Below, piece by piece: positions 27,242 to 50,107 of a stretch of 64,000 bases of DNA. A model generated the notes under the pieces. That model worked only from the letters and a program-made list of their open reading frames with translations. It was not told the origin of the DNA and ran no database searches. The stretch's first letter is position 1. Every line of letters starts with the position of its first letter. Origin of the DNA: an uncultured Chitinophaga sp. (GTDB lineage Bacteria > Bacteroidota > Bacteroidia > NS11-12g > UBA9320); assembly GCA_964617955.1 (NCBI GenBank), contig CAZTXB010000010.1:1771-65770 (forward strand), in the 5' to 3' direction. Position numbers and translations under genes: made by a program.

Positions 27242-27344
27242 GTGTTACTGGTTGTATTTGAATTTTTGTTTTACAATTTTGGTTCCAAAAATAATGGAAT
27301 TTGCACAAAGCTGATTTTAGAAATTGTTCGCTGAGTGTAATTTA

Positions 27345-27472
27345 ATACCAATGTGATTTACAGCATAGACAAATATTATGTAAATCATACCGTGGTAAAT
27401 GCCTGTGGATACAAATGTTTAGCACAAATTGGGAAACAAAAATTTGGGCTCTGACATTTATCCCATTGGTAG
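27345..27472. repeat. Copy B1 of a roughly 125-bp intergenic repeat family (ATACCAATG-like motifs at both ends and internally)
   Basis: Aligns by eye to 48033-48158, 28890-29010 and the minus-strand 49086-49209 (core ...TTATGTAAATnATnCnnTGGTAAATGCCnnTGGATACnAATGTTTAGnACAAAT...AAAATTTGG...CCAAT.GGTA). Ends are AATACCAATGTG / CCCATTGGTAG, so inverted. Confidence 0.6.
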
Positions 27473-27508
27473 ATGTGAAAGAATGCAAGTTTTTCACGAC
27501 TATGCGTG

Positions 27509-28798
27509 TCAATCCAATAATTTTATGAGTTTTTCTGCGGCGGCCTTGCGACTGAAGGCGCTTACATCAAAAGTGCTTTTTGCAGGTATATTTTGCTGCC
27601 AATTTTGAAAACTTAACCCTAAAAATTGGGCGATGCCTTTCAGGTCTTCAATCGCAAAAAAGCCTGAAATGTTTTGTTGACTTACCAATGCAGCGGCATC
27701 GCTCAAGGGATCGCCAATGCCTAGAATAGGCGTTCCGGAAGCGAGGTATTCCATCGTTTTTGTGCTTACAATCAACCGCGTTTCTCCTTCCATAGGTGGG
27801 CACAAAAGCAACAGCGAGCTGCTAACCATGGATTCAACAGCCTCTCTGCGGGGCAGAAATTTTTGCTGAATCAGGTTTAGCTCAGGAAGACTTCCTTTTA
27901 GCAATTCCAAATGTCCACCATACACCGAGCCGGTTAAACGCAATTCGACTTTGCTCAGATCTATGCCCGATTGCTTTAACGCATGCATAAACACATCAAA
28001 CTTCTGGCTAGGTCCAAGTAAACCAAGATGGGTGATTACAAACTTATTTTTTTCAGTAGGGGTCTTAACTCCGTCAAACAAGGCCTGGTCATAACCATTA
28101 AAGATGACCTGAGGGCTTTTGTCCATGCCCATTTTACTCTTTAACAGCTCAGCCATCGATGGACCGACAGTCAAAACCAAATCGGCTGCGTTCAACACCT
28201 TTAATTCCAGAGCTTTATCTCGTTTTTTAGCCCAATTGAATCGGTACACATTTTGTAGAAAATAAATTTCAGACCAGGGGTCTCTGAAATCTGCCATCCA
28301 TTTAACACCAAACTTTTTGGCTAGATAAAGTGCCGCTAAATGGGTGGAGTGAGGGGGCCCTGTACTAATAATCCAGGTAAATTTTTCTTCATTGAGCGCT
28401 TTGACGGCTGCTTTTTTAAGATAGGGGTTCCATCCCTTTCTGGCATCAGGAATAAAAAAATTAGCCCTCACAAAAGCCATTATTTTTCCGAACCATCCGC
28501 CTGTATTGTTTCCAAGATCGCCATAGGGAATTTGCTTTTTTACGGTTCCCGACTTTAAGAACGAATACCATTTAAAAGGTTCCAGAGTGTCTGTATAAAG
28601 GGTATCGATGGCATCCACCATGTCCATTTGTGTTTCATCTATGAGAGGATAAGACGCCTTTTCCGGATTTACAGTAATGACCAGAGGATTGTAACCTGCG
28701 AGTTTGAGGTATTTGGCAAAATACATCCACCTCTGCACACCTCCCCCTCCGCTGGGCGGCCAGTAATAGGTGAGTATGAGTATGCGCCCTGAATTCAT
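27509..28798 (-). CDS. Glycosyltransferase (GT4-like, N-terminal YYWPP motif family)
   Basis: N-terminal RILILTYYWPPSGGGGVQRW, typical of a GT-B glycosyltransferase subgroup. I placed the start at the internal ATG (28798, MNSGRIL); the track start is 28843. Confidence 0.8.
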   Translation of the reverse strand: MNSGRILILTYYWPPSGGGGVQRWMYFAKYLKLAGYNPLVITVNPEKASYPLIDETQMDMVDAIDTLYTDTLEPFKWYSFLKSGTVKKQIPYGDLGNNTGGWFGKIMAFVRANFFIPDARKGWNPYLKKAAVKALNEEKFTWIISTGPPHSTHLAALYLAKKFGVKWMADFRDPWSEIYFLQNVYRFNWAKKRDKALELKVLNAADLVLTVGPSMAELLKSKMGMDKSPQVIFNGYDQALFDGVKTPTEKNKFVITHLGLLGPSQKFDVFMHALKQSGIDLSKVELRLTGSVYGGHLELLKGSLPELNLIQQKFLPRREAVESMVSSSLLLLCPPMEGETRLIVSTKTMEYLASGTPILGIGDPLSDAAALVSQQNISGFFAIEDLKGIAQFLGLSFQNWQQNIPAKSTFDVSAFSRKAAAEKLIKLLD

Positions 28799-28889
28799 AT
28801 TATGCCGACGCAAATTTAAGCCCCCTTTATCTAAATGTACCATACATCTGGCGAATTCTTAAAACAAAACCGTTTCGAATACTCATGAC

Positions 28890-29010
28890 CATGAGATTTA
28901 CATAATATTGCTATTTTGTAAATCTTACAGTGGTATATTCCCATAGCCATAAATGCTTAGGGCAAATTGAGGAAAGCACGTTTGAACCTATGCTTTTGTT
29001 CAATCGGTAT
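28890..29010. repeat. Copy B2 (more degenerate) of the roughly 125-bp repeat family
   Basis: ...TTTGTAAATCTTACAGTGGTATATTCCCATAGCCATAAATGCTTAGGGCAAATTGAGGAAAGCACGTTTGA...TTCAATCGGTAT aligns to the B1/B3 core. Left boundary unclear. Confidence 0.4.
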
Positions 29011-29113
29011 AAAATGAAGCACCACATTTCCTCACAACTGTTTATAACATTTTAATAAAGCCATATATGAATTACTAAACTTTGTGCGTTGATAATAAAA
29101 CTTCATAAATCCA

Positions 29114-29815
29114 ATGCTCTTATCTATTTTATTACAAGCCAACGTCGCTTCAACCGATTCAACAGCCAATAATGGCGCCGAGGCCGGGACCGGCCAGGGT
29201 CTCAATATTCTTGATATGCTTATAAAGGGTGGGCCTATCATGATCCCAATTGCCTTGTGCAGTATAATCGCTGTTTACATTATGGTTGAACGCTACTTTA
29301 ACATTAAGCAAAAGTTTAAAATCAATCAAAATTTCATGTCGTCTATCAAAGATAATGTGGTGAACGGCAATATCAGCTCTGCTCTGAACCTGTGCCGTAC
29401 CAACCCAACGCCGGTTTCGAGAATGGTTGAAAAAGGACTTTTGAGAATTGGCAAGCCTTTAAAAGACATTGAAACCAGTATGGAAAATGTGGGTAATTTA
29501 GAGATTTCTAAAGCGGAGAAAAATTTGGGAATTTTGGGAATTATCGCAGGTATTGCACCCATGCTTGGGTTCATAGGGACGATTTTAGGGGTTATAAAAA
29601 TATTTTACGACATCGCTCAAACCGATAACTTTAGCATCAGCACCATTGCCGGGGGCTTATATCAAAAAATGATTACAAGTCTGGCCGGATTGGTTGTGGG
29701 GGTATTTGCTTACTCCGGTTACCATTTGCTCATGCTCATGGTCGACCGACTGACTTTTAGAATAGAGGCAGCCGTTATTGAATTTGTAGATATCTTGCAG
29801 GAACCCACACGTTAA
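29114..29815 (+). CDS. exbB: MotA/TolQ/ExbB proton-channel family protein
   Basis: 233 aa with a 3-TM topology and the conserved C-terminal MotA_ExbB region (GIAPMLGFIGTILGVI...). Immediately followed by an ExbD/TolR gene. Confidence 0.8.
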   Translation: MLLSILLQANVASTDSTANNGAEAGTGQGLNILDMLIKGGPIMIPIALCSIIAVYIMVERYFNIKQKFKINQNFMSSIKDNVVNGNISSALNLCRTNPTPVSRMVEKGLLRIGKPLKDIETSMENVGNLEISKAEKNLGILGIIAGIAPMLGFIGTILGVIKIFYDIAQTDNFSISTIAGGLYQKMITSLAGLVVGVFAYSGYHLLMLMVDRLTFRIEAAVIEFVDILQEPTR

Positions 29816-29827
29816 TCCATAAACACT

Positions 29828-30220
29828 ATGCGATTAAGACATAAAAGAAGATTTCACGCTGAAGTTGGAACCGGTGCTCTCAACGACATCATGTTCTTTC
29901 TTTTGCTCTTCTTTCTCATTATCTCCACCTTGGCCAACCCAAGCGTAATCAAGGTGTTTCTTCCCAAAACCAAGGTGGAAGAAAGAGTCAGCGACCCACC
30001 GATCATCTTGGTAATGACAGCCGATAAGCACTACTATATCAACAATGTGGAGGTGCCATTTGGCGACATCGAGGGCATGCTCAAACAAAAAGCGCCTACC
30101 ATGAAGGAGCCTACCATCATTATTCGCCCTGATGCTTCGCTTACCGTACAGGACCTGGTTGATGTGATGACCATTGGGGTTAAAAACCATATCAAAATGG
30201 TGATTGCTACCCAAAAATAG
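29828..30220 (+). CDS. exbD: ExbD/TolR biopolymer transport protein
   Basis: 130 aa. N-terminal cytoplasmic basic stretch, a single TM (DIMFFLLLFFLIIS) and a periplasmic ExbD domain. Confidence 0.8.
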   Translation: MRLRHKRRFHAEVGTGALNDIMFFLLLFFLIISTLANPSVIKVFLPKTKVEERVSDPPIILVMTADKHYYINNVEVPFGDIEGMLKQKAPTMKEPTIIIRPDASLTVQDLVDVMTIGVKNHIKMVIATQK

Positions 30221-30228
30221 AAAAGGCT

Positions 30229-30792
30229 ATGCCTGAGCTTAACTTAAAATTTCAACCTTTTCCGGTTCTCGAAACAGAGCGTTTAATTTTAAGACACATT
30301 ACCAAAGCCGATTCCGATGTGATGCTAAAATTGCGTTCAGATGTAGCGGCTATGCGCTATCTCGACAGGCCTATAGCAGTATCTATTGACGACGTGCATG
30401 CCCTTCTGGGACGAATGGACGACGACATTGATAACAACGACGGGGTGTCATGGGGTTTGGAATTAAAGCAAAGCGGCCAATTAATAGGAACCCTGGGCTA
30501 TTACCGACTCAAAAAAGAACATTTCAGAGGGGAGATAGGCTACATGCTTTTTCCAAGCCATTGGAGAAAGGGTTTAATGAGCGAAGCCATGCACAGGGTC
30601 ATGGATTATGGCTTTAATACCCTGGGATTTCACAGCATAGAGGCCGATATTAACCCTGACAATGAAGCTTCAAAGGGCATACTGCTCAAAATGGGCTTTG
30701 TACAGGAGGCTCATTTTAAGGAAAATTGTTTTTATGAAGGAAAATTCCTGGACACCATGATCTTTTCCATGCTAAAAAAAGATTTTAAATAA
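30229..30792 (+). CDS. GNAT family N-acetyltransferase (RimJ/RimL-like)
   Basis: 187 aa. TERLILRHITKADSDVM at the N-terminus and acetyl-CoA binding motif (GYMLFPSHWRKGLMSEAM) typical of the Acetyltransf_3 family. Confidence 0.85.
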   Translation: MPELNLKFQPFPVLETERLILRHITKADSDVMLKLRSDVAAMRYLDRPIAVSIDDVHALLGRMDDDIDNNDGVSWGLELKQSGQLIGTLGYYRLKKEHFRGEIGYMLFPSHWRKGLMSEAMHRVMDYGFNTLGFHSIEADINPDNEASKGILLKMGFVQEAHFKENCFYEGKFLDTMIFSMLKKDFK

Positions 30793-30805
30793 ATTTTTAC
30801 TCAGA

Positions 30806-31180
30806 TTGCTTTCAAATAAGATTAAATATAGCGTTTTCCTCTTTTTGACCATCTTGACTTTTGCCTGTCGTTTTATCGAAAATAACGGCACCGATGGAGG
30901 TCCCTGCACATATGAAACCAAATATTTCCCTGCCGAAGTTTTCGAAATCATAGCTATAGACAGCCTTTATTCTGAGGTTTATTTTGTTGTAAAAGGTTGC
31001 AGCGACTGTGAACGCGATACCCTTGTGTATTCAGGAGAGTTTACCGGTTACCTCCCCAACGATTCAATAGAAGCAAATAGGATTGCTTTGGGAAGCCGAC
31101 TAAAATATAAAGTGATGGAAATTAAATCCGGGAGCTGCAGCCCCCATATTGAAGTGCTGTTAAACGAAAAATTCGAATAA
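30806..31180 (+). CDS. Hypothetical Cys-rich secreted/lipoprotein
   Basis: 124 aa, signal peptide with a Cys in lipobox-like context (LTILTFACRF), and 6 Cys in the mature part. Predicted TTG start. Confidence 0.4.
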   Translation: MLSNKIKYSVFLFLTILTFACRFIENNGTDGGPCTYETKYFPAEVFEIIAIDSLYSEVYFVVKGCSDCERDTLVYSGEFTGYLPNDSIEANRIALGSRLKYKVMEIKSGSCSPHIEVLLNEKFE

Positions 31181-31301
31181 AAGGACTGAATCATTGGAAT
31201 AGGTCGTACATTTATTTAAGCAATTATTGAACATCGGGTCTTTACAATTGAGATGATTCAACACCCTTTTTTAATCTACTTTTGCTTTTTAAATTTCTCC
31301 T

Positions 31302-32783
31302 TTGGGCAACATTAAAAAACTGGCATCGCAAACGTTGACTTATGGTATGAGTACCATTGTGGGAAGGTTTATCAACTTTTTATTGGTTCCCCTTTACACT
31401 GCGCTCTACAATCCCCATGAGTATGGAATTGTAACCGATGTTTACGCCATGGTGGCTTTTTTAAATGTGGTGCTGGTATATGGAATGGAAACGGCGTTTT
31501 TCAATTTTGCGCGCATGAAAGAAAATTCGGTAGCAAAAGTATATGCTACAGGGATGAATAACCTACTGATAAGCAGTACATTGTTTATCATCGCCGGCTC
31601 TCTGTTTCATGTTCCAATTGCCTCATGGCTTCACTATGAGCAACATCCCGAATATATTCTTTGGTTCGTATGGATTATAGGCGTGGATGCCATCAGCGCT
31701 TTGCCGTTTGCCCTTCTCAGGCAGATGCAGAAACCCATTAAGTTTTCAGTTCTCAAATTGGTTTGGGTTTTAGTAAATGTGTTACTCAATCTTTATTTTT
31801 TGCTCTGGGCACCAAAACTGGTTGCTCAAGGTGTTACGGCTCCGTTTTTCGATGCGGGAATAGGATTGGGCTACATTTTTATTTCCAATTTGGTAGCCAG
31901 TTTGTTTGTACTCGTCTTGCTTTTGCCGGAGTGCTTGAAATATGGATTTAAGGCCGATTCGGATTTGAGAATGGCCATGTTAAAGTACGCCTGGCCGTTA
32001 ATTTTTATTGGCCTGGCCGGTATTGCCAACGAAACCTTTAGTCGGGTCATACTAAAATATTTAACGCCTGAAAAAGACGGCTTTTACCAACTGGGGGTGT
32101 TCGGGGCCTTTTATAAACTGAGCATCATCATGACCCTTTTTGTTCAGGCTTTTAAATTCGCGGCTGAACCCTTTTTCTTTGATCAGCATAAAAATGAAAA
32201 TGCCCAATTGCTTTATGCGCGCATTATGGACTATTTTGTCATGGTGTGTTCAGCCATATTTTTGGGAACCATGCTCTTTGTTGAACAACTGTCGGGACTT
32301 CTTATCCGGCAAAAGGATTATTTCGAGCACCCCGACGGGATAAAAATTATCCCCATTTTGCTCATGGCCAACCTTTTTTTAGGAATGTTTTACAGCATCA
32401 GCGTTTGGTACCGACTTACCGATAACACTAGAAAAGGCTCTCGCTTATCCGTCATAGCAGCCATTATCACAGTGGTATTTAACGTGGCCCTCATCCCATT
32501 ATACGGGTTTTTGGCCTCTGCCTGGGTCACCTTGTTCGTTTACTTCTTTTTGGCAGTTTCAAATTATATCTGGGGGCAAAAGTATTACCCAGTGCCTTAT
32601 AATATTTTAAAGCTCTCCCTTATCATTATGCTTTCCATCGTTATTTATCTGCTGTCAAAAGCGCTTCACCCCCAAATTGAAATATCGGTATGGTTTATGA
32701 ATGCCCTTTGGATCTTAGTGTTTGGACTGGGTTTAATTTTTATTGAAAAACGTTTTAAAACCGGATATGAAAGTGCGCATTAA
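31302..32783 (+). CDS. Polysaccharide biosynthesis protein, Wzx-like flippase (MOP superfamily)
   Basis: 493 aa, about 12-14 TM helices. The N-terminal [27 protein letters not shown] is typical of Wzx/oligosaccharide flippases. Predicted TTG start. Confidence 0.75.
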
Positions 32784-33204
32784 TATCGTAAATAAAAGTC
32801 GCCACCCCTTGCCGAAATACCAATCCAAACAGGCTGCCGGTGTGGATGTGATGGCGAATATTTCTGAGCCTGTAACCCTGCTACCCCTTCAAAGGCATCT
32901 TGTTGGCACAGGACTAAATATTGAACTCCCCGAAGGGTATGAAGCCCAAATCAGACCGAGAAGCGGCCTGGCGGCGAAGCATGGCATTACCATAGTAAAC
33001 AGTCCGGGAACTATCGATTCCGATTACCGTGGCGAAATCAAAATATGTTTGGTCAATTTGTCGAACGAAGTATTTACCGTGAATGACGGAGACCGCATCG
33101 CCCAAATGGTGATTTCAAAGCATGAAACGGCCCTGTTTAATTTAGTGGAGGAACTCGCGCCTACCGACCGAGGCGAAGGGGGTCATGGAAGCACCGGAGT
33201 CTGA
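32767..33204 (+). CDS. dut: dUTP diphosphatase
   Basis: Motifs [31 protein letters not shown] and GDRIAQMVI, the dUTPase motifs. ATG at 32767 (MKVRINIV) overlaps the flippase 3' end. Confidence 0.9.
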
Positions 33205-33227
33205 ATCCGAAGTCATTTATTAAAAAT

Positions 33228-34511
33228 CTAAACTTCAAGGGAAGTTTCCGGGGCATTTGCTAGCGGGGATTTAGAATGTTTGTTGACGTAATTATTGAGA
33301 ATATACATCAGAAACAAGGCCACAAGCATGGATGAGATCACCACAAAACCAAGATCCTGATAGTGCTTCAAAGATCCATTCGCTCCTCTGACCACAATGA
33401 GGCCGGCAAAGTAGGCCGCAATGCCTCCTGAAATCTGTTGCACCGATGAATTGATACTCATAAAGGCTCCTCGGTCTTTGGCCTCAGGTATCGCTGTCAT
33501 GAGCGCCGACGCCGAAACCATCCTGGAGGTGATGCCTGCAAATAAAATGATGTTGATGATCATCACCAACCATAATGGTGTAAAGCCAAGGGACGTATAA
33601 GTCGCCACCATCGCTCCGCTGAGAAGGGTGCCTATCAAAAATATTTTGAATTTGCCGTAGGTATCACTCATTTTGCCTATGAGCGGCCCCAGCAGTATGC
33701 TAGAAAACCCCGTAATGCCATAGAGTTTCCATAAATCGACGCGACGAATCCCCAAATTGTTGACTGCAAAATCGCTGCCGAAAGGCATGAGCATGTAACC
33801 TCCGGTAGCCAATACCGTGGTGGCCAAAAAAGCCCTTACATAGGGTTTAAAAGTAAGGGTCTTAAAAAGATGCTTCATTGCGCTTCGGTCATTTTTAAGG
33901 GTTAAATGCCCGTCGATGGGCTTCATATAAATAACAATGGCGACACCGGCCAGAAGGCAAAGAGCCACAATCATACTGAATGGAGCATGCCATCCAAAGT
34001 GCGACGCCAGAAGCAGGCCAATAGGCAAGCCTAATATTTGACTGGCGGCAAACGACATTTGGATAAACCCCATGACCCTTCCACGCACTTCCAATTTAAA
34101 CAGGTCGGTAATGATGGCGAAACTCACCGAACTGATGATGCCTCCAAAAATTCCGGTTACGATTCGGGCCATTAATAAAAAATCGTAAGTGGGAGCGATG
34201 GAACATAAAAAGGTTCCAAACACAAATCCAACATAAAAAAACAGCAAGAAGCGTTTACGGTCGAATTTATCAGCAAATCCGGCGATGATTAGCCCTGCGA
34301 TTCCTGCAAATATGGCGTATGCCGATACCACTTTCGAAAATTGAGAAGGTGTAATTTTTAACTCATCCATGAGTTGCTCTCCCAGGGGTGAAAGCACCAT
34401 GAAGTCGAGCACCACGGTAAATTGAATGAAAGCCAGTATGGCTATCATAAATTTTTGATAAGCACTAAAAAGTGGTTTTTGTTTCTCAGGTACCGATTGG
34501 GGTGGTTTCAT
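33228..34511 (-). CDS. MFS transporter
   Basis: 427 aa, 12 predicted TM helices. An MFS loop 2-3 motif (GFADKFDRKR). Confidence 0.85.
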   Translation of the reverse strand: MKPPQSVPEKQKPLFSAYQKFMIAILAFIQFTVVLDFMVLSPLGEQLMDELKITPSQFSKVVSAYAIFAGIAGLIIAGFADKFDRKRFLLFFYVGFVFGTFLCSIAPTYDFLLMARIVTGIFGGIISSVSFAIITDLFKLEVRGRVMGFIQMSFAASQILGLPIGLLLASHFGWHAPFSMIVALCLLAGVAIVIYMKPIDGHLTLKNDRSAMKHLFKTLTFKPYVRAFLATTVLATGGYMLMPFGSDFAVNNLGIRRVDLWKLYGITGFSSILLGPLIGKMSDTYGKFKIFLIGTLLSGAMVATYTSLGFTPLWLVMIINIILFAGITSRMVSASALMTAIPEAKDRGAFMSINSSVQQISGGIAAYFAGLIVVRGANGSLKHYQDLGFVVISSMLVALFLMYILNNYVNKHSKSPLANAPETSLEV

Positions 34512-34574
34512 AGTTTAAAAAGGTACCTCCGGAGACAATAAAATTTGCGAACAATCAGAAGACAGACCTGTAAA

Positions 34575-35270
34575 TCAGATACTCACCTGGCTGTTGATGA
34601 TACTTTGAAAAATCTGAAAGCCATCTGAGTTAAACAAAGAATCGGTAGCACAGCGCTCGGGGTGTGGCATCATTCCAAACACGTTTTTGCCTCGGTTGCA
34701 AATTCCAGCAATATTGTGCAGTGATCCATTCACATTCGACTGTTCGCTTATTTCTCCATTAGCATCGCAGTAGAAAAAGAGCACCTGCTTGTTGTCCATG
34801 ATTTCCTTCAAAGTGTCATCATCCGCATAAAATCTTCCTTCGCCATGAGCAATAGGAATTTTTAAAACCTCCGAAGAGGAAATGCAGTTGGTAATAGGCA
34901 AGTTGATATTTCCTGGCTTGAGATACACATTGTCGCAAACAAATTGTAAATTTTTGTTTCGCAATAAGGCCCCCGGCAACAAACCGGCTTCGCATAATAT
35001 TTGAAAACCATTGCAAATACCCATTACATAGCCGCCTTTGTTTGCAAATTCAATGATGGATTGCATGATGGGGCTGTATCTTGCAATGGCCCCGCTTCTC
35101 AGGTAATCGCCGTAGGAAAACCCACCGGGTAAAAATATGAAGTCGCAATCTTGCAAATCGGTGTCTTTGTGCCAAAGCTCAACCACTTCCGAATCTTCGA
35201 GTTTTTCGAGAACATGAATCAAGTCGTGGTCGCAATTAGACCCGGGAAATATAACTACCCCAAATTTCAT
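34575..35270 (-). CDS. purQ: Phosphoribosylformylglycinamidine synthase subunit PurQ (glutaminase)
   Basis: N-terminal [16 protein letters not shown], catalytic Cys context GICNGFQIL and His/Glu (HPERC). Class I glutamine amidotransferase. Confidence 0.9.
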
Positions 35271-35406
35271 ATGTGCAAAGGTAAATCTATTTTGTGGAAT
35301 GAAAAGTTCAGGTGGAAATATAGCTTGAAAATGTGGGGATTAAATTTGTAATTTCAGGTTAGCACACTATAGAACGTCAACACATTCATGCCGGCTCAAA
35401 AAAAAA

Positions 35407-35760
35407 TTACGATTGTTCAAGTTCCTCCCAGTATTCAGCTGCCCTTCGTGTATGCGGAATAACAATGGTGCCACCGACAATATTGGCTACAGCAAAAGTT
35501 TCAAAAACTTCGGCCTTACTCACCCCATTTTCATGACATTTTCCCAAATGGTATTTGATGCAATCGTCGCAGCGCAAAACCATGCTAGCCACCAATCCCA
35601 GCAGTTCTTTGGTCTTTACTGGTAGGGCGCCATCGGCGTAGGTATTGGTATCCAGATTAAAGAGTCTTTTCAGTACCAAATTGTCGCCGTCCATAATGGC
35701 TTTGTTTCCCTTTTCTCTGCTCTCGTTAAACTCTGTAACCAACTTTGATTTATTTCTCAT
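35407..35760 (-). CDS. Carboxymuconolactone decarboxylase family protein (AhpD-like)
   Basis: 117 aa. The CDDCIKYH motif (C-x2-C-x3-H) is characteristic of the AhpD/CMD family. Confidence 0.8.
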   Translation of the reverse strand: MRNKSKLVTEFNESREKGNKAIMDGDNLVLKRLFNLDTNTYADGALPVKTKELLGLVASMVLRCDDCIKYHLGKCHENGVSKAEVFETFAVANIVGGTIVIPHTRRAAEYWEELEQS

Positions 35761-35786
35761 ATCCCAAATTAACTCATCTTAATTTA

Positions 35787-40033: not shown

Positions 40034-40087
40034 TTTATCTGGTGCTATAATGGGGGATGATTATTAAACGGAAGAAAAGAACATCTT

Positions 40088-41545: not shown

Positions 41546-41723
41546 GGTGTGTTCCCTTTTTGAGGGCTGACAAAGATATTTAAATAGCTGAAATCTTAAG
41601 AAGGGATTTTTTTGCCAACACATTAAAACATGTAAAACTAAAGAAAATGCTGTTCATTTTATTTTCTAGTCTTAGTTCTTTACCCCCATCCCCATTTTTT
41701 TTTCCCTTATTTTTTTTGATTCT

Positions 41724-42932
41724 TTGCAAATGGCTTCCCATAAATCCCTGTCTTCAAAAATCGCCTTCTTTGCTTTACCCCTGTTGGTGTTTTTGATGGT
41801 ACTTGCCATTACCCGATTTATCGCGCATCAAGGCAATTGTCACGAATGGGGCGAGCTGTGTTGGTCAAGACAAGATTCTGGTCTTTACATTCAGATAGCC
41901 GGCATCGGGCATACTTTATTTCATTGCGGACCGGAATTCGGGTATCCCGAAAATTCGGAGGTATGGTGCGGCAATGCCGGTTGGGCGCCGTTTTATCCCA
42001 TGCTCATGTTCATGTTGAGCAAAGCCTGTGGATTGGATTTACCCAATGCGGGCATCGTGCTTTCGTTGTGCTTCATGATTGGGTTTTTGTATATAGCCGC
42101 TCTGTTCATAGAGGTTAAATCCTTTGCCCTTTCCAATTGGCTAACCCTCTTAATTTGTGCCATATGTCCGGGAGGTATTTATTACTTTGCCATTTTTCCC
42201 ATGTCGCTTATGATTTTTCTTCTGGCCATGGTATTTTATGGCCTCAAGTCCAACCGCTTTATTTTGACGACCATCGGGTCCTTTCTCTTACCCCTCACTT
42301 ATAGCTCGGCTATTGTTATATTGTTTGCCTTTGGCCTTTACCTCGCCTTGTTATGGTTTAAAAGTGCCCCCTTTGCGTCTCTGAATGTTAAGGAATTGGT
42401 GCAAAACAGTTTCAACATGCTGCGGGAACACATCATTTTTAAAACCTTACTGCTCAGGGTATTGCTTCCCGGGATTTTGGGACTGCTTGGTCTTTATATT
42501 TACGATTATTGGGCCACAGGTCACTGGAACGCCATGTTTTTGATTCAGAAAAAATATGGACATGGACTTTACAGCCCTTTCAAACACCTGAAAGGCCATT
42601 GGCATACCTTTCAAAACCTCCTTTATACCAAAGAAGCCTGGGTTAGCTTTCACAATGTGTTTTTCTTTTTTGCCTTACCGTTCTTGTGCCTGCTCATTTA
42701 CAGAACCAAGGCAGCCCTTAGCGCGCTGGTAATTGTGTTTAGTCTGTGCATCTGGTACTTCCCCTTTAGCATAGGCATGCATGTGTCGCTTTACCGAGGC
42801 ATAGGTCTCCTTGCGCCGGCTCTGATTTTTCTGCATCCCGTAAGCCACCTTAAAAAAATAATCCTAGCCCTGGTATTTGGGGTTTTTTACTATTTCATGG
42901 GGGTGCTTTTCATTTACGATATCCTGAAATAA
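41724..42932 (+). CDS. Hypothetical polytopic membrane protein (possibly GT-C-like/DUF2029-like)
   Basis: 402 aa with about 10 hydrophobic helices. No soluble-domain motifs recognised. Confidence 0.5.
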   Translation: MQMASHKSLSSKIAFFALPLLVFLMVLAITRFIAHQGNCHEWGELCWSRQDSGLYIQIAGIGHTLFHCGPEFGYPENSEVWCGNAGWAPFYPMLMFMLSKACGLDLPNAGIVLSLCFMIGFLYIAALFIEVKSFALSNWLTLLICAICPGGIYYFAIFPMSLMIFLLAMVFYGLKSNRFILTTIGSFLLPLTYSSAIVILFAFGLYLALLWFKSAPFASLNVKELVQNSFNMLREHIIFKTLLLRVLLPGILGLLGLYIYDYWATGHWNAMFLIQKKYGHGLYSPFKHLKGHWHTFQNLLYTKEAWVSFHNVFFFFALPFLCLLIYRTKAALSALVIVFSLCIWYFPFSIGMHVSLYRGIGLLAPALIFLHPVSHLKKIILALVFGVFYYFMGVLFIYDILK

Positions 42933-42959
42933 ACGCTCTGAATTATTCAAAATTTTTGC

Positions 42960-42990
42960 TTTGCACTTCTGCATAAAAATCTTATTTTTG
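42960..42990 (+). promoter_or_regulatory. Bacteroidota sigma-A-type promoter (TTTG -33 element, 19-nt spacer, TAtTTTTG -7 element) for the yceD-rpmF-plsX operon
   Basis: TTTG at 42960-42963, a 19-nt spacer, and TATTTTTG at 42983-42990, which matches the TTTG-N19-TAnnTTTG consensus exactly. It lies about 18 nt upstream of the GTG start at 43009. Confidence 0.45.
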
Positions 42991-43008
42991 CAGCCCTTTT
43001 GAAAAAGT

Positions 43009-43539
43009 GTGGATGCTTTAAAAAATTACAATATTGATTTTGTAAAGCTAAAACTAGGAGAGCATGCATTTGACTTTGAAATTGATGACTCCTTTTTTAG
43101 CCTTAAAGAAAACTCACTTATTGATGAGGGAAAACTTAACGTTCATTTACATCTGGACAAGAAAGAAAGGTTAATGAATCTTCATTTTTCAATAAATGGG
43201 ATGGTATTAACCAACTGCGACATTTGCCTTGATGCGTTCGAATTGCCCGTTGACGGACAGGACGATCTGGTGGTGAAAATTGTTGAGGAACCAAAGGAAA
43301 GCGACAGCGAAATCGTGTACCTCAGTCCTCAAGAGATAGCGCTCAACGTATATGATTTTATTTATGAAATCATATGTACCCAAATTCCTCTGAGTAAGAG
43401 TTGTGCCTTAAGTCACCCAAAACCAAAACCCTGCAATCCGCAAATGCTGCAATTTCTGTCAGATAATAATGTTACATCAAGTAGCGAATTACAAACGGAT
43501 CCCAGATGGGATAAGTTAAAAAATATAAAAGATTTATAA
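43009..43539 (+). CDS. YceD-like/DUF177 protein (large ribosomal subunit accumulation protein) upstream of rpmF
   Basis: 176 aa, conserved position immediately upstream of rpmF-plsX. A cysteine pair motif (CDICLD) and a C-terminal Cys are typical of DUF177. Predicted GTG start. Confidence 0.7.
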   Translation: MDALKNYNIDFVKLKLGEHAFDFEIDDSFFSLKENSLIDEGKLNVHLHLDKKERLMNLHFSINGMVLTNCDICLDAFELPVDGQDDLVVKIVEEPKESDSEIVYLSPQEIALNVYDFIYEIICTQIPLSKSCALSHPKPKPCNPQMLQFLSDNNVTSSSELQTDPRWDKLKNIKDL

Positions 43540-43542
43540 AAA

Positions 43543-43725
43543 ATGGCACATCCCAAACGAAAAATCTCCAGAACCAGAAGGGACAAAAGAAGAACCCACG
43601 ACAAATTAGGTTTTAAGCAGGTTTTTACCGATCCCAAGTCAGGTGATAGCTCCTTGTTCCACAGAGTAAACATGGAAACAGGGGTATATCGCGGTGTTCA
43701 GGTTATCGAAGTTAAAAACGCTTAA
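43543..43725 (+). CDS. rpmF: 50S ribosomal protein L32
   Basis: N-terminal MAHPKRKISRTRRDKRRTHDKL is the L32 signature. 60 aa. Confidence 0.9.
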   Translation: MAHPKRKISRTRRDKRRTHDKLGFKQVFTDPKSGDSSLFHRVNMETGVYRGVQVIEVKNA

Positions 43726-43746
43726 TATTCCCCTTCCCAAAAATTA

Positions 43747-44691
43747 ATGACGCGTATCCGCATAGGATTAGATGCCATGGGCGGGGATTATGCCCCGGCT
43801 GAAGCGCTGAAAGGTGCTTCTAAAGCTCTTGCCTCCAGCGATTTCGCCAATGTCGATATCGTATTGGTTGGCGAAAAGCAAAAAATAGAAGAGGGATTGG
43901 CCGAAGCAGGCATTTCCCATCCTTTCGAAATTATTGATGCCCCCGATACCATCAGCATGGGCGAGCATCCTACCAAAGCCGTTTCTGCCAAACGCAATTC
44001 GAGCATTATGGTTGGACTCAAAATGCTTATGGAAGGAAAATTGGACGGATTTACAAGTGCCGGAAATACCGGTGCCATGATGGTTGGCTCCCTCTATACC
44101 GTAAAAACAATTGATGGCATTTTCAGGCCTGCAATTTCTACTATACTACCCCGCCCTTCGGGCAAACATGGCCTCATGCTTGATGTGGGTGCCAATGCCG
44201 ATGTAAAACCGGATGTTTTGGTTCAGTTTGCTAATATCGGAGCCATTTATGCCAAATCCATTATGGGCATAGAAAGCCCTAAAGTGGGCCTGCTGAGCAT
44301 TGGTGAAGAAAAAGAAAAAGGCAATATTTTAACCCAGGCTACTTATCCGCTGCTCGAAGCCGACCGCTTTATTAATTTTATAGGCAATGTGGAGGGGCGC
44401 GACCTCTTTACCGACAAGGCCGATGTGATTGTGTGCGATGGCTATACCGGAAATGTGGTACTCAAGGCATGTGAAGGCATGTTTTACCATTTGATGAAGC
44501 GCGGTGTGAAAGACGATTACCTCAACATGTTTAACTTTGAAAACTATGGAGGTTCCCCCATTTTAGGTGTGAACAAACCCGTGATAATAGGCCATGGTAT
44601 TTCAAAGGCAAAAACCATTGTGAATATGCTCAAGCTCACCAACGATGTAGTGGTTTCAAACCTCATCGACAGCATCAAAGCCCAGCTTTAA
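43747..44691 (+). CDS. plsX: Phosphate acyltransferase PlsX
   Basis: N-terminal IGLDAMGGDYAP, then GNVVLK and a C-terminal region are collinear with PlsX. Classic rpmF-plsX linkage. Confidence 0.9.
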   Translation: MTRIRIGLDAMGGDYAPAEALKGASKALASSDFANVDIVLVGEKQKIEEGLAEAGISHPFEIIDAPDTISMGEHPTKAVSAKRNSSIMVGLKMLMEGKLDGFTSAGNTGAMMVGSLYTVKTIDGIFRPAISTILPRPSGKHGLMLDVGANADVKPDVLVQFANIGAIYAKSIMGIESPKVGLLSIGEEKEKGNILTQATYPLLEADRFINFIGNVEGRDLFTDKADVIVCDGYTGNVVLKACEGMFYHLMKRGVKDDYLNMFNFENYGGSPILGVNKPVIIGHGISKAKTIVNMLKLTNDVVVSNLIDSIKAQL

Positions 44692-44932
44692 CTTTTCCGG
44701 ATAATTTCTATTAAGAAAGTCCACTATCTTTTTCAACTTTTCAGAGAAAAGCATTTACAAAATAGCGGAATCCTTTAATTCAAGATTTTTTTGGTGGCAT
44801 GCAGGCTAATAAATTAAAATTTATTCAGCCGACAACCTTTTAACTTTAAGAATCATCTCAATTTTATCGGAGTGCTTTTAAAACAACATTTTAAACAAAA
44901 AACTTACTTATTTTCGCTACCTTAAATTTTTT

Positions 44933-47900
44933 ATGAAGAGATTTGGATTAATCAATAACGTTTTTGGATGGCTGTCGTTTTTGATAGCTTTAGTGGTTTA
45001 TGGTTTAACTGTAGAACCATCGGTGAGTTTGTGGGATTGCGGTGAATTTATTTCAGCCTCATACCGCATGCAGGTAGTGCACCCGCCGGGAGCTCCCCTC
45101 TTTCTGATGCTTGGACGACTTTTTTCGCTTTTTGCAGGAGGCGATGTAACGCAGGTCGCCCCTTGGGTCAATAGCTTGAGCGTGTTTGTGAGCGCCTTAA
45201 CGGTATTATTTACCTTCTGGATTATCACACACTTTGCAAAAAAACTGCTCAATATTGCCCTTGATGCCGAAGAAATTTCAATGCCCGATGCGCTTGCCAT
45301 TTTGGGAAGCGGCTTGGTTGGTGCCTTGAGCCTCACTTTTATGGATTCGTTCTGGTTTAGCGCTGTTGAGGCTGAAGTTTACGCCTCATCCTCTCTCTTT
45401 ACAGCCTTGTCGTTTTGGTGTATTTTGAAATGGGAACGTGTAAAAGATGAACATGGCGCCGACCGATGGATTATACTCATAGCCTATATGCTTGGGTTGG
45501 CGGTGGGATTGCACTTACTTAACTTACTGGTAATACCTGCAGTGGTTTACTATTATTATTTCCACAGATACCAATACAGCCGCAAAGGATTCTATATTTC
45601 TACGGCCATTGGTTTGGGCGCTTTGGGAATCATACAGGCTGTTATTTTGCCTGGCTTGCCAAAGGTTGCTGCCATATTCGACAGACTGTTTGTCAATTCC
45701 TTAAATCTGCCCTTTAACAGCGGCGTGCTGTTTTTTGTGGTGCTGTTTTTGGGTGGGATAGGCTATGGCATTTATTATTCTTTTAAAACCAACCGAACCA
45801 TTTTAAACCTGATACTCAACTGCCTTTTGTTAATATTTTTGGGTTATTCGTCTTACGCCATGGTGGTGATTCGCTCACTCGCCGATCCCGCCATAGACAT
45901 GAACAACCCTGAAGACGCCTATACCTTAACCAGCTATATCAATCGCGAGCAATATGGAAGCAGGCCTGTGGTTTATGGACCCTACTACAATGCGCAGTAT
46001 ATTGGCACTGAAGAAGGCGCCATGCAATACCGGAAAGGTGCCGACTCCTATGAAGAAATAGGCAACAAAATAGAACCCATTTGGGATCCTAAATTTTGCA
46101 CGGTGTTTCCACGTATGGGCGACATGCAAAAAGAAGGAGGGCCTCAGGGCTATCAACTCTGGAGTGGGGCCAAAGAAGGACAAAAGCCAACATTCGGACA
46201 AAATCTGACTTTCTTTTTTAAATATCAGGTGGGCTACATGTACATGCGTTATTTCCTTTGGAATTTTGTGGGGAGGCAAAATGACAATCAGGGGATGACC
46301 GGAGACCCATGGGACGGCAATTGGCTAAGTGGCATTAACTTTATCGACAACATGATTTTGGGGCCTCAAAGCAATTTGCCCGATACCTTTAAAGTTAACA
46401 AGGGACGAAATACCTTCTTCTTCTTACCGCTCATTCTGGGTATTTTGGGCATGGTAATACAGTTTAAGAGACGTCGCTTCGATGCCAATGTTATTTTAAC
46501 CTTGTTCTTGTTTACAGGGTTGCTCATCATTGTATACCTCAACCAACCCCCCTATGAGCCGAGAGAACGCGATTACTCCATGGTGGGCTCCTTCCAGACC
46601 TTCTGCATTTGGATTGGCTTAGGCGTACTCTTCTTGTACGATTACCTTGGTAGAAAATTAAAAATGAGTAAAACAGGGGTGGCGGCCATTGTAATAGTGG
46701 TTTCCTTATTGGCCAGTCCTTATTTGATGGCCAAGTACAATTGGGATGATCACGACAGATCCGACCGTTATTTGGGAATATCCTTCGCCAAAAATTATTT
46801 GAACAGCTGCGAAAAAAACGCCATTCTCTTTACCAATGGAGATAACGATACCTACCCTCTTTGGTATGCGCAAAATGTAGAAGGTGTACGGACCGACATT
46901 CGCATTATCAACTTAAGTCTTTTAGGCACCGATTGGTATATCAATGCCCTTCGGAGAAAGGTTTATGATTCCGAACCTTTGCCACTTTCCATTCCGCCTG
47001 AAAAACTGGCCGAAGGACTGCGCGAAGCCACCTACTTTTTCGACAACGGCCAATTCGACCAAACCAAAGTATTTCCGTTGGATGAAGTGGTTAAATTCAT
47101 GACCAGCGACAATGAAGCTGACATGACAGCTAACAGCGGAGGACGACCTATGAACTTTATGCCGGTTAAAAAATTCATTATGCCTGTAAATAAAGAGGAA
47201 TGCATAAAAAACGGTGTGGTAAAAAGCAGCGACCCCATTGTTGACAATATCACCTTTGACATAGGCGCCAGCACCGTATACAAAGGCACCCTGGTAGTAC
47301 TGGATATCTTAGCACAGAACGCCAAGCAAGGATGGAAGCGCCCTATCTATTTCACCACCACCACCGGCTCTTCTGCCTACCTGAACCTCGACGAGTATTT
47401 CCGACTCGAAGGATTGACCTATCGCCTTGTGCCAATTAAGAGTGATAAAAATGCCATGGGGTTAATCGACGCCGATTTACTTTACAATAAGCTCACCAAA
47501 ACTTTTGATTGGGGCAAAATGGATAAAAATCTTACGATGAACATGGACGAAAAGGCCACTTTGGTTCCAAAGAACTTAAGGGTGTTGTTTGTTCAACTCG
47601 CACGGACCTATGCGCTTGAAAAAGCGGATAAGAAAAAGGCAGTTTACTTGTTGGATTATAGCCAGAAGGTGATTCCAGAAGCCATTATGCCAATGGATCT
47701 GAGATTGAGATATTATTACATCGATACCTATTACATGGCAGGAGAGAATAAGAAGGCCGAGCAGCTGCTGGAAATCATGGTAAAAGATTGTGAACAACAA
47801 GCGCGATTTTACAAGCAGTACACCGGCTCGAAAGCCAAATATGTAACAGAAAAATTGCAGGAATCAGTGGGCTACATCAACGAATGTGCAAAAAAGGCCA

Positions 47901-47965
47901 CCGAACAAGGCAACAAAAAATTAGGAGACAAGTATTCTGCCTTGTTCAATCAATTGAGCAGATAA
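44933..47965 (+). CDS. DUF2723-type giant membrane protein (putative GT-C-fold glycosyltransferase, PMT_2-like N-terminus)
   Basis: 1010 aa. N-terminal about 11 TM helices with SLWDCGEF and a DxD-like loop typical of GT-C/PMT-like proteins, then a large soluble C-terminal domain with TPR-like helices. Confidence 0.7.
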   Translation: MKRFGLINNVFGWLSFLIALVVYGLTVEPSVSLWDCGEFISASYRMQVVHPPGAPLFLMLGRLFSLFAGGDVTQVAPWVNSLSVFVSALTVLFTFWIITHFAKKLLNIALDAEEISMPDALAILGSGLVGALSLTFMDSFWFSAVEAEVYASSSLFTALSFWCILKWERVKDEHGADRWIILIAYMLGLAVGLHLLNLLVIPAVVYYYYFHRYQYSRKGFYISTAIGLGALGIIQAVILPGLPKVAAIFDRLFVNSLNLPFNSGVLFFVVLFLGGIGYGIYYSFKTNRTILNLILNCLLLIFLGYSSYAMVVIRSLADPAIDMNNPEDAYTLTSYINREQYGSRPVVYGPYYNAQYIGTEEGAMQYRKGADSYEEIGNKIEPIWDPKFCTVFPRMGDMQKEGGPQGYQLWSGAKEGQKPTFGQNLTFFFKYQVGYMYMRYFLWNFVGRQNDNQGMTGDPWDGNWLSGINFIDNMILGPQSNLPDTFKVNKGRNTFFFLPLILGILGMVIQFKRRRFDANVILTLFLFTGLLIIVYLNQPPYEPRERDYSMVGSFQTFCIWIGLGVLFLYDYLGRKLKMSKTGVAAIVIVVSLLASPYLMAKYNWDDHDRSDRYLGISFAKNYLNSCEKNAILFTNGDNDTYPLWYAQNVEGVRTDIRIINLSLLGTDWYINALRRKVYDSEPLPLSIPPEKLAEGLREATYFFDNGQFDQTKVFPLDEVVKFMTSDNEADMTANSGGRPMNFMPVKKFIMPVNKEECIKNGVVKSSDPIVDNITFDIGASTVYKGTLVVLDILAQNAKQGWKRPIYFTTTTGSSAYLNLDEYFRLEGLTYRLVPIKSDKNAMGLIDADLLYNKLTKTFDWGKMDKNLTMNMDEKATLVPKNLRVLFVQLARTYALEKADKKKAVYLLDYSQKVIPEAIMPMDLRLRYYYIDTYYMAGENKKAEQLLEIMVKDCEQQARFYKQYTGSKAKYVTEKLQESVGYINECAKKATEQGNKKLGDKYSALFNQLSR

Positions 47966-47985
47966 GCTAAGATAATGCGAATGAT

Positions 47986-48020
47986 AAACCCACTCTGACA
48001 CACGGGGTGGGTTTTTCTTT
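47986..48020 (+). terminator. Intrinsic terminator after the DUF2723 gene: stem AAACCCAC/GTGGGTTT followed by TTTTTCTTT
   Basis: Stem 47986-47993 / 48007-48014 with a 13-nt loop and a downstream T-rich tract. 21 nt past the TAA (47963-47965). Confidence 0.55.
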
Positions 48021-48032
48021 AACCTGTAGGTT

Positions 48033-48158
48033 ATACCAATGGGGTTAATAAAAAATAGACATTATGTAAATTATGCATTGGTAAATGCCGATGGATACCA
48101 ATGTTTAGGACAAATAGAGGAACGAAAATTTGGACGATTACATTTGACCAATCGGTAT
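48033..48158. repeat. Copy B3 of the roughly 125-bp repeat family
   Basis: Ends ATACCAATGG (48033-48042) and ACCAATCGGTAT (48147-48158; reverse-complement ATACCGATTGGT). Internal inverted motif CATTGGTA...TACCAATG. It aligns to B1 and is the reverse complement of 49086-49209. Confidence 0.65.
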
Positions 48159-48187
48159 TATTCAAATAGAACTTAAAAAATAAAAAA

Positions 48188-48934
48188 TTGGAAGCGCCCA
48201 TACAAAATAACATCGTTTTTGGCATAAGAGCCATCAGTGAAGCCATCCTTGCAGGTAAAAATTTTGATAAAATATTCATTAAGCAAGGTGGCAAAAGCCC
48301 TCTGGTTACCGAATTGTTGCAAATGGCCAGGGAGAAGGAAATCACACTCAAAATGGTACCTCAGGAAAAACTCGATGGCATTACCCGCAAAAACCATCAA
48401 GGGGCCATTGGCTTCATTGCTCCGGTGGTCTATCAAAATTATGAGGAAATTATCACCGGATGTTTCGAAAACGGTGTCGATCCTCTGATTCTGGTTTTGG
48501 ATGAAATAACGGATGTAAGGAATTTTGGCGCCATAGCCAGAACAGCATTGTGTATGGGTGTGCATGCCATTTTAATACCTTCCAATGGGTCGGTAACGGT
48601 AACTCCGGACGCCATAAAAACTAGCGCTGGTGCTTTGATGAGTTTACCCGTTTGTAAGGAGAAATCTCTGCCCATAGCCATTGAAAAAATGAAGGAATAC
48701 GGGCTCAAAGTCATAGGCTGTACAGAAAAGGGAAATGATGTGGTGGGTCAGCTCGACCTGTCAGGGCCTTTGGCCTTGGTGATGGGATCGGAAGAAAAAG
48801 GCCTTTCGCCTTTGATGCTGCGCTTGTCGGATAAGCTGGCCATGATTCCCATTTCAGGTCCCGTAAAGTCGCTTAACGTTTCGGTAGCTGCCGGTATGGT
48901 GCTTTATGAAATAGGGAAACAACGTATAGTTTAA
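48188..48934 (+). CDS. rlmB: TrmH-family (SpoU) RNA 2'-O-methyltransferase, RlmB-like (23S rRNA Gm2251)
   Basis: The N-terminal substrate-binding domain (IVFGIRAISEAILAG), SPOUT motifs (LVLDEITDVRNFGAIARTA, LVMGSEEKGLS, IPISGPVKSLNVSVAAG). Predicted TTG start; there is no in-frame ATG upstream. Confidence 0.8.
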   Translation: MEAPIQNNIVFGIRAISEAILAGKNFDKIFIKQGGKSPLVTELLQMAREKEITLKMVPQEKLDGITRKNHQGAIGFIAPVVYQNYEEIITGCFENGVDPLILVLDEITDVRNFGAIARTALCMGVHAILIPSNGSVTVTPDAIKTSAGALMSLPVCKEKSLPIAIEKMKEYGLKVIGCTEKGNDVVGQLDLSGPLALVMGSEEKGLSPLMLRLSDKLAMIPISGPVKSLNVSVAAGMVLYEIGKQRIV

Positions 48935-48938
48935 GTTA

Positions 48939-49302
48939 GGGCCTGCTTAAAAACACTTAAAGGCTTGATATGATTAGGTTCTCATTAGCTTTTATTTCTT
49001 TTAATGCACGATAAAATTGGTTAAGTATGAAAATGTTGTACTTCAAATGCCTTTATGAGGATGTTAGTTCATTGCACATGCATCACGCCGATTGGACAAA
49101 TGTAATAGTCCAAATTTCGTACCTCAATTTGCCCTAAACATTTGCATCCATCGGCATTTACCACTGTATGCTTTAAATAATATGGGTGTATCATGTAAAG
49201 CACATTGGTTTAACTTCGGCGGCTGCAGACTGAATTACGTCAAAGTACATCTGCGCTTTGCCGCCTCGTCCTGCATGCACACTGAACTTTTTCAGCAGGC
49301 CC
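48939..49302. mobile_element. Copy A1 of a MITE-like element: 15-bp terminal inverted repeats GGGCCTGCTtAAAAA ... TTTTTCAGCAGGCCC, TA on both flanks, 364 bp, with copy B4 nested inside
   Basis: Read directly. The left end and a 95-bp right arm are shared with 49827-50076 and 54613-54848. Flanking TA at 48937-48938 and 49303-49304. It begins 5 nt after the rlmB stop. Confidence 0.65.
49086..49209. repeat. Copy B4 of the roughly 125-bp repeat family, in inverted orientation, nested within MITE-like copy A1
   Basis: 49088-49209 is the reverse complement of the B3 core (GCCGATTGG ACAAATGTAAT.GTCCAAATTT...GCATTTACC...CACATTGGT). Copies A2 and A3 lack this segment at the corresponding point. Confidence 0.6.
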
Positions 49303-49313
49303 TAAATTACCAA

Positions 49314-49538
49314 CTACCCGTTTTCATTTTCTTCATCTTGTTCTTGTGGCTCCTCTTGTTGGCTGTTCCTCTCTCTTAATTTTTGTTTTACAACTTTGAT
49401 CACGTACCCCCCGCCAATGAGAACCAGCAGTACAAAAACAACGATGCCATAAACGACCCCTGTATCGTTCACGGAGGCTGTCCCTGCCAATGCGATGCTG
49501 CATAGAAAGAACAATGCCAACAATAATCCGGATTTCAT
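49314..49538 (-). CDS. Hypothetical small membrane protein (74 aa: signal/TM, second TM, acidic tail)
   Basis: MKSGLLLALFFLCSIALAG...VVYGIVVFVLLVLIGGGYVI...EEPQEQDEENENG. It sits in the repeat-rich island directly abutting A1. It could be a spurious ORF. Confidence 0.3.
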   Translation of the reverse strand: MKSGLLLALFFLCSIALAGTASVNDTGVVYGIVVFVLLVLIGGGYVIKVVKQKLRERNSQQEEPQEQDEENENG

Positions 49539-50076: not shown

Positions 50077-50107
50077 TAAAATAAATCACCTAATTTTGAT
50101 TCCGTAA

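Follow-up and report, generated by a model that had tools for sequence, protein, structure and literature searches.

The Correia repeats of Neisseria (also known as NEMIS) and the RUP repeats of Streptococcus pneumoniae are elements of ~100-150 bp with inverted-repeat ends and a short AT target duplication, which can fold as long hairpins and lie between genes, with dozens to hundreds of copies, some of them inside other repeats. The ERIC or IRU sequences of enterobacteria are imperfect palindromes of ~127 bp that are also intergenic and form variants by internal insertions and deletions. Here we describe a repeat, termed B, that resembles both groups and is present in a stretch of 64,000 nucleotides from an uncultured Chitinophaga sp. 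(contig CAZTXB010000010.1 of assembly GCA_964617955.1, positions 1,771 to 65,770 of the forward strand), hereafter the window. While B is similar to Correia and RUP in size, in its inverted-repeat ends and in its short AT duplication, those elements duplicate TA (2 bp), carry terminal repeats of ~26 bp, belong to other phyla and have no sequence similarity to B that we could see. ERIC and IRU likewise come from another phylum and differ in sequence, and ERIC lacks both a clear target-site duplication and the four sites found in B. [quoted passage not shown] It follows from the sharp ends, short terminal inverted repeats, fixed 3-bp duplication and non-coding sequence of B, together with its dispersed copies, empty sites and nesting within another repeat.

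Two further groups of MITEs are close to B in different respects. Tourist-like MITEs such as mPing and mPIF, moved by transposases of PIF/Harbinger, the eukaryotic relatives of bacterial IS5, are like B small, AT-rich and non-coding, have short terminal inverted repeats (10-17 bp) and a 3-bp TWA duplication, and prefer non-coding AT-rich DNA (PMC5172404, PMC4122938). Unlike B they are eukaryotic, with repeats that begin with GG or GGCC and show no sequence similarity to it, while B has four end-like sites, two conserved hairpins and no partner transposase that we could find. The IS5-derived MITEs of Porphyromonas gingivalis (BrickBuilt, MITE239/293/464/700) are non-autonomous, intergenic and from the same phylum as B; they are present in ~10-20 copies per genome, and resident insertion sequences are presumed to move them in trans (PMC4596501). 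Known ISPg elements match their terminal repeats (GAGACCTTTGCA), whereas B ends in TACCAATG and CCAATCGGTA; their duplications are 2-9 bp or absent, whereas that of B is fixed at 3 bp; and B is shorter, with a double foldback. Literature searches for a Bacteroidota MITE with the ends of B turned up these P. gingivalis families only.

A first-pass annotation of the window, made by eye, had proposed four copies of a repeat of about 125 bp, and these are real. The window holds exactly four copies of B, each 124-126 bp long, which align end to end with a mean column identity of 84% and are the only ones recovered there by either a hidden Markov model or a covariance model. An nhmmer profile built from the four copies matches the same four at E values of 1e-32 to 1e-35, with the next match at E>0.01. 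The covariance model, built from 32 members of the family and run over the window with filters off, scores them at 82-119 bits, with the next best match at 15 bits (E=1). B1 (27346-27471, plus strand; 111.9 bits) is full length at 126 bp and lies between a PPIase gene (26204-27241, minus strand) and a GT4 glycosyltransferase gene (27509-28843, minus strand), with mismatched flanks (TAA/GAT). B2 (28886-29009, plus strand; 82.1 bits), the most diverged copy in the window, has a degenerate 5′ end (TGACCATGAG) and mismatched flanks (TCA/TAA), and is found between the GT4 gene and a MotA/ExbB gene (29114-29815, plus strand). B3 (48034-48157, plus strand; 99.3 bits) is full length, sits between the terminator of a DUF2723/TMEM260 gene and the start of rlmB, and is bounded by two copies of TTA (48031-48033 and 48158-48160, plus strand). 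B4 (49086-49210, minus strand; 119.3 bits) is also full length and lies within a copy of another repeat, A1, where its plus-strand flanks are TCA (49083-49085) and TAA (49211-49213). Identity among these copies is 64-78%, making them about as distant from each other as from other subfamilies of B. They are thus old relics, an age that explains why a perfect duplication is retained at B3 alone.

Across the family, B is 124-127 bp long with a GC fraction of 0.33-0.38. The open reading frames (ORFs) in B are short artefacts that read across the repeat, with no capacity to encode a transposase. The shared peptide NIGIHRHLP / NICIHRHLP of two such frames (48031-48351, minus strand; 49092-49379, plus strand), already recognized as artefactual, arises because both read the minus strand of B. 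The motif ATACCAATG occurs five times in the window against 0.88 expected, with three of the five matches in B1 and B3.

The boundaries of B are sharp and the same in every genome: similarity begins at TACC and stops at GGTA, and the DNA outside is unrelated. Identical direct 3-nt flanks (TTA, TAA and once TCA) border 27 of 39 copies, while shuffling the 3′ flanks within genomes gives a mean of 18.3 matches and reaches 27 or more in ~1 of 100,000 trials (P ~1e-5). Reading the flanks as inverted fits one copy only. Copies flanked by TTA/TTA, TAA/TAA and TCA/TCA are found together within one genome. L042 and L051, two sister copies of the Ga0209512 genome, have in common a derived replacement within the element, in the 3′ arm of its first hairpin, but are flanked by TAA/TAA and TTA/TTA, respectively. 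The triplets therefore arise at insertion and represent a target-site duplication rather than a part of the element. These observations also bear on a different view of B, as a hairpin-dependent single-strand DNA element of the REPIN/PATE type, moved by a Y1/HUH enzyme (RAYT or the TnpA of IS200/IS605), for which the left TWA would be the target and the right TWA the cleavage site belonging to the element. The 5′ flank is indeed more uniformly TWA than the 3′ flank, as such an element would have it, but the 5′ and 3′ triplets co-vary within genomes at the significance given above, and the difference between L042 and L051 means that the 3′ triplet is not inherited. PATEs have a 5′-only target and no duplication; B has their hairpins, but its 3′ triplet varies together with the 5′ one.

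At one locus (L008), a Chitinophagaceae copy of B, at 6618-6743, interrupts a rhuM-like ORF. The element and its duplication together span 129 bp, or 43 codons, with stops in all frames through the element, and excising B plus 3 nt reopens the rhuM-like reading frame. The residue spacing of the restored frame fits what we take to be that of RhuM proteins.

Orthologous intergenic regions, whose comparison had been proposed with the first-pass annotation, lack B in relatives both at the DUF2723-rlmB site and around GT4. A protein 100% identical to the RlmB of the window was found on contigs as long as 118 kb, followed by relatives at 80% and ~75% identity, the best named match being a Flavobacteriales metagenome-assembled genome (MAG) at 74%. 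B3 is absent from L027 (RlmB 80% identical) and from L030-32 (75%), in which the gap between the DUF2723 gene and rlmB is 63-150 bp without B. A hairpin resembling an intrinsic terminator (AAACCCACTCTGACACACGGGGTGGGTTT) 3′ of the DUF2723/TMEM260 gene is kept in these relatives (window ~47990-48020; L027 ~9960-9990; L030 ~9880-9910), and B3 is inserted 14 nt downstream of this hairpin and 30 nt upstream of rlmB. Relatives whose GT4 is 63% identical have the gene order MotA / E1_dh-GT4-GT1-PPIase with no B around GT4, while a 98%-identical strain carries both B1 and B2. The outer TAA flanks and mismatched inner flanks of B1 and B2 had suggested a composite transposon, B1-GT4-B2, but this was rejected, as GT4 has the same ancestral neighbourhood in relatives that lack B; B1 and B2 are thus separate insertions. 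B1 and B2, in the gaps at 27242-27508 and 28844-29113, occupy the places of the GT1 and E1 dehydrogenase genes of the relatives, and recombination between B copies could have deleted these two genes.

The insertion of B4 can be read from paralogous rather than orthologous sites. The A repeat is a separate MITE-like family of ~240 bp with the terminal inverted repeat TAGGGCCTGCTGAAAAACAC and flanks that are always TA; the window holds A1 (48937-49304, plus strand; terminal inverted repeat TAGGGCCTGCTGAAAAA), A2 (49826-50078) and A3 (54611-54850). The place of B4 in A1 corresponds exactly to a point at which 15 bases are added in A2 and none in A3. Here A3 reads TTA just once (54757-54759, plus strand), a paralogous empty site from which each of the B4 flanks differs by one mismatch. 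The nesting of B4 in A1, as first proposed, is a true insertion. The accompanying proposal that A1 equals A2 plus B does not hold, because the left interior of A2 is unrelated to that of A1 and A3; A1 is instead an A3-like copy plus B, and the A family is a mosaic. At the same point, A1 reads TCA-B4-TAA and A2 reads TTA-TACCGATTGGTA-ATA, with TACCGATTGGTA at 49973-49984 (plus strand) between TTA (49970-49972) and ATA (49985-49987). This 12-mer has one match in the window against 0.01 expected. It had been described as an end-to-end junction of the terminal motifs of B, and what it matches is a B copy, minus-oriented like B4, that would have collapsed by deletion of everything between an ATTGG near one end and that near the other, leaving the termini joined at this shared motif. 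No convincing further remnants of this kind were found across all collected loci. The gap between rlmB and radA in which A1 and A2 lie is 1173 bp in the window (48935-50107) and 2-53 bp in relatives. The extra DNA consists of A1 with B4, an ORF for a putative small membrane protein of 74 aa (49314-49538, minus strand) and A2; a small gene carried between two A copies as one composite unit is a possible reading.

Copies of B are also found beyond the window. Scanning one genome per species with the conserved core of B gave 24 loci in three MAGs: Flavobacteriales bacterium GFS_3499, Chitinophagaceae bacterium ME2001 bin94 and Bacteroidia bacterium B_bin_24. A scan of metagenomes added the same Chitinophagaceae population, a genome designated Ga0209512 (contigs of 0.3-0.85 Mb) and two further sources. 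With duplicate loci removed, this amounts to ~40 unique copies, spread over six or more Bacteroidota bins or metagenome populations besides that of the window. The hosts are several uncultured freshwater Bacteroidota, including a B-rich Chitinophagaceae population from Lake Mendota. Plasmid, phage and IMG/VR collections gave no match to B. Copies are 93-94% identical within the Flavobacteriales and Chitinophagaceae MAGs and 51-73% identical between genomes, a pattern that fits separate bursts of amplification. Searching with the minus-strand peptide of B retrieved seven spurious database proteins (P0241-P0247) of 52-69 aa with the core LNxCIHRHLP, which are gene-calling artefacts; one of these ORFs belongs to the B subfamily of the window itself and lies on a 239-kb NCBI contig.

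The architecture of B goes beyond a pair of ends. The 5′ end, TACCAATGTGA, and the 3′ end, TCCAATCGGTA, form short imperfect terminal inverted repeats: TACCAATGTGA agrees with the reverse complement, TACCGATTGGA, at ~8 of 11 positions, and at 9 of 12 in the Chitinophagaceae subfamily. The earlier claim of an inverted motif at both ends thus stands in this weaker form, while the TWA next to it is the target duplication and lies outside the repeat. Two more end-like motifs stand back to back in the middle of the element (...CAGTGGTA AA TGCCGATGG...), giving B four TACCRAT-like sites of alternating orientation. From left to right these are TACCAATGTGA (site 1, at the left end), the reverse complement of CAGTGGTA (site 2), TGCCGATGGA (site 3, which follows site 2 by two bases) and the reverse complement of CCAATCGGTA (site 4, at the right end). 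A first hairpin (H1) of ~50 nt is closed by sites 1 and 2, and a second (H2) of ~72 nt by sites 3 and 4. In B3, H1 extends over 48034-48083 (plus strand) from site 1 (TACCAATGG) to site 2 (CATTGGTA), and H2 over 48086-48157 (plus strand) from site 3 (TGCCGATGG) to site 4 (CCAATCGGTA), with a GAA loop at its tip (48120-48122) closed by the pair G48119 / C48123. The internal motifs that had been reported for B3 are present, 2-3 nt away from where they were placed: CATTGGTA at 48076-48083 and ATACCAATG at 48095-48103. Across seven subfamily consensus sequences, conservation is 0.93 at the left end, ~0.85 at the right end and 0.91-0.94 at the internal junction and the 5′ arm of H2, and falls to 0.6-0.7 in the hairpin interiors.

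Folding of single sequences as DNA gives the two-hairpin shape in most copies, with z scores of -3.3 to -6.1, while B3 folds poorly (-1.0). RNAalifold run on 32 sequences returns almost no structure because H1 of the Chitinophagaceae subfamily cannot be aligned. Pairs were therefore counted on a structure projected from one member onto the alignment of 32 sequences, a procedure that somewhat favours structure; under it, 85.7% of cells are paired, compared to 31-44% when the partners are slid, and both partners have changed in 19 pairs; the covariation score is 0.20, and at most 0.08 in the slid controls. The GAA at the tip of H2 is invariant. Three subfamilies close it with G-C, the Flavobacteriales MAG with C-G, and three other subfamilies, as well as one Flavobacteriales copy, with T-A.

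Compensatory change in the two hairpins and an invariant loop with an exchangeable closing pair are also what an element moved by a Y1/HUH enzyme would be expected to have. The Flavobacteriales subfamily carries GCGAAGC at the tip of H2, and d(GCGAAGC) is an exceptionally stable DNA mini-hairpin. The top strand further has more G-T wobbles than A-C mismatches (90 to 16 across all cells), but this excess shrinks to 12 to 3 when counted per subfamily consensus, where it comes mostly from one position. The lineage of L042 and L051 moved despite the replaced 3′ arm of H1, so that an intact H1 is not essential for transposition. The REP, BIME and REPIN sequences served by RAYT resemble B in their alternating imperfect palindromes, compensatory hairpin change and intergenic location, often at gene 3′ ends. 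REPs have a conserved 5′ GTAG and, to our knowledge, no target-site duplication, whereas B has TWA duplications and, with its TACC/GGTA ends, no GTAG-type 5′ tetranucleotide. Rfam gave no match to RNAs of the IS605/HEARO type, the few ORFs checked beside B copies are housekeeping or hypothetical, and the collected DNA showed no RAYT gene, no dedicated RAYT search having been made. Taken with the behaviour of the flanking triplets, movement of B by such an enzyme is unlikely.

A conserved fold would equally be expected if B were a structured non-coding or cis-acting RNA family (small RNA genes, transcript stabilisers or terminators) that is multi-copy through its usefulness. Both the covariation and the folding z scores agree with this, as does the placement of 41 element sides next to gene 3′ ends compared to 26 next to 5′ ends. 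Yet B is not a known structured RNA family, in keeping with the first-pass annotation: the window has no Rfam match at gathering thresholds, and nothing falls on the B copies at E<=1 to 10. The hairpins are not followed by a T-run, and among 17 gaps between tandem genes, B is co-oriented with its neighbours in 6 and anti-oriented in 11, i.e., without orientation bias. The target-site duplications, the location of B4 inside another repeat and of the L008 copy inside a rhuM-like ORF, the orthologous sites without B, and sequences that are homogeneous within genomes and divergent between them all speak against an RNA kept for its function, making this explanation very improbable.

The four alternating sites, being the best-conserved parts of B, had also raised the idea of an array of operator half-sites, which a host regulator or nucleoid protein would bind and which selection would hold at particular promoters; the first-pass annotation had left the choice between such an array and a small MITE open. 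Dispersal, target-site duplication, empty sites and nesting favour the MITE, and the alternating sites are confirmed without the operator function. Essentially all B copies are intergenic, the L008 copy being the only one to interrupt an ORF, but the neighbouring genes are unrelated (GT4, PPIase, MotA/ExbB, rlmB, hemF, rhuM and others). Of 29 sites that could be classified from crude ORF-based gene calls, 10 lie between convergent genes, 17 between tandem genes and 2 between divergent genes, so B is depleted where promoters lie. Since duplications, nesting and empty orthologous sites point to insertion events, we regard an operator array as highly improbable; the four sites are best read as the element ends and an internal junction. 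The internal pair may provide accessory binding or be a scar left where two foldback units fused. A possible outward promoter of the Bacteroidetes type near the 3′ end of B (TACATTTG, matching the TAnnTTTG -7 box) was discarded, as a properly spaced -33 TTG is absent and the box is not retained in the Flavobacteriales subfamily.

For B as a MITE, the question becomes which enzyme moves it. Both IS5 and PIF/Harbinger produce a 3-bp target-site duplication and prefer AT-rich targets (PMC4122938), and IS5-family elements are common in Bacteroidota (PMC3196728, PMC4596501), where they are the presumed parents of the known Porphyromonas MITEs (PMC4596501). Because B has the same 3-bp duplication, an IS5-like DDE transposase is our best guess for its partner, by analogy. 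A transposase supplied in trans would bind the sites of B and insert it at TWA triplets in AT-rich intergenic DNA, with cuts staggered by 3 bp that would be repaired into the TTA or TAA duplication. Amplification of the family has taken place separately in several Bacteroidota genomes. Apart from incidental effects on adjacent genes, a dedicated function of the copies in the window is improbable. The copies and their boundaries, the target duplication, the empty orthologous sites, the nesting and the conserved hairpins and sites are observed; which kind of enzyme acts, what the internal sites do and whether the copies are neutral is what we infer here.

Several points weigh against a MITE of this kind. 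No autonomous element with B ends was found in ~620 kb of collected DNA or in the plasmid, phage and IMG/VR collections. The window and the collected loci contain no transposase, and pairs of end motifs 0.03-4 kb apart in all collected loci enclosed ordinary genes or nothing. A 1.5-kb contig that has a B copy at each end, in inverted arrangement, was considered as an autonomous element and dismissed, since its cargo is an ordinary enzyme gene that reads as hemF and not a transposase, and all-against-all blastn within each genome set revealed no other repeat of insertion-sequence size. The TACC...GGTA ends differ from the IS5-type ends of other Bacteroidota MITEs cited above (PMC4596501), those of IS5-family elements usually being GG or GA, and the terminal inverted repeats are short and imperfect. 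The flanks are mismatched in 12 of 39 copies, mostly with a canonical 5′ triplet and an odd 3′ one (TGA, TTG); in the Chitinophagaceae MAG, the five copies that have TTA on the 5′ side all lack it on the 3′ side; and in the window, the duplication is perfect in one of four copies (B3). Finally, the conservation of the hairpins, with the invariant GAA and its covarying closing pair, exceeds what a simple terminal-repeat model needs.

These last features leave room for a mechanism in which the enzyme recognises the hairpins instead of the short terminal repeats, and B moves as folded single-stranded or cruciform DNA and yet with a 3-bp duplication; or in which the conserved junction of H1 and H2 is a retained site of abutted ends, similar to a circle junction, and renders the element hyper-reactive. 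The reasons to keep it in view are the invariant GAA with its covarying closing pair, the internal position of the most conserved block and the asymmetry of the flank mismatches. We know of no description of movement as folded DNA combined with a 3-bp duplication for either DDE or HUH transposons, and consider a mechanism of this kind quite unlikely.

Variants of B provide further views of its organization. H1 alone is present at two loci (L017, 2750-2801; L062, 2599-2650, the same locus as in L063 and L064), where it keeps the TACC...GGTA ends of B and has TWA-like flanks that do not match, and the two hairpins may be separable modules. In Ga0209512, a GC-rich palindrome of 16-17 nt, TCCCGAAGCCTCGGGA(T), has taken the place of parts of B, at three distinct positions (L042, 2199; L047, 3320; L034, 1716; L051, ~2420), in one case nested in itself, the L051 copy being a variant seen by eye. 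An exact-pattern scan of ~44 kb of this genome found the palindrome only inside B copies; perhaps it is another mobile sequence, a tiny one with B as its target. Locus L039 contains a 185-bp element (6318-6502) with B-like ends (TACCTATGTGATTT...TTTCAATCGGTA), TTA/TAA flanks and a different interior, which may represent a sister family with the same ends. At L017, a 20-nt tandem duplicate of the B 3′ end (637-656) directly follows a complete copy, with a second full copy 45 bp further on.

The B family opens no long-standing question, but it combines the TWA duplication characteristic of eukaryotic Tourist elements with an unusual four-site, double-hairpin build in a bacterial MITE. It also has practical consequences. 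In Logan assemblies of the same species, contigs break inside B3 (end of L025) and just before A1 (start of L026), indicating that both repeat families fragment short-read assemblies, and B in addition seeds spurious protein entries in public databases. As a marker of strain- and lineage-specific insertions, it could be tracked in time-series metagenomes. Its occurrence in MAGs of different Bacteroidota orders suggests that the element and its transposase have spread horizontally.

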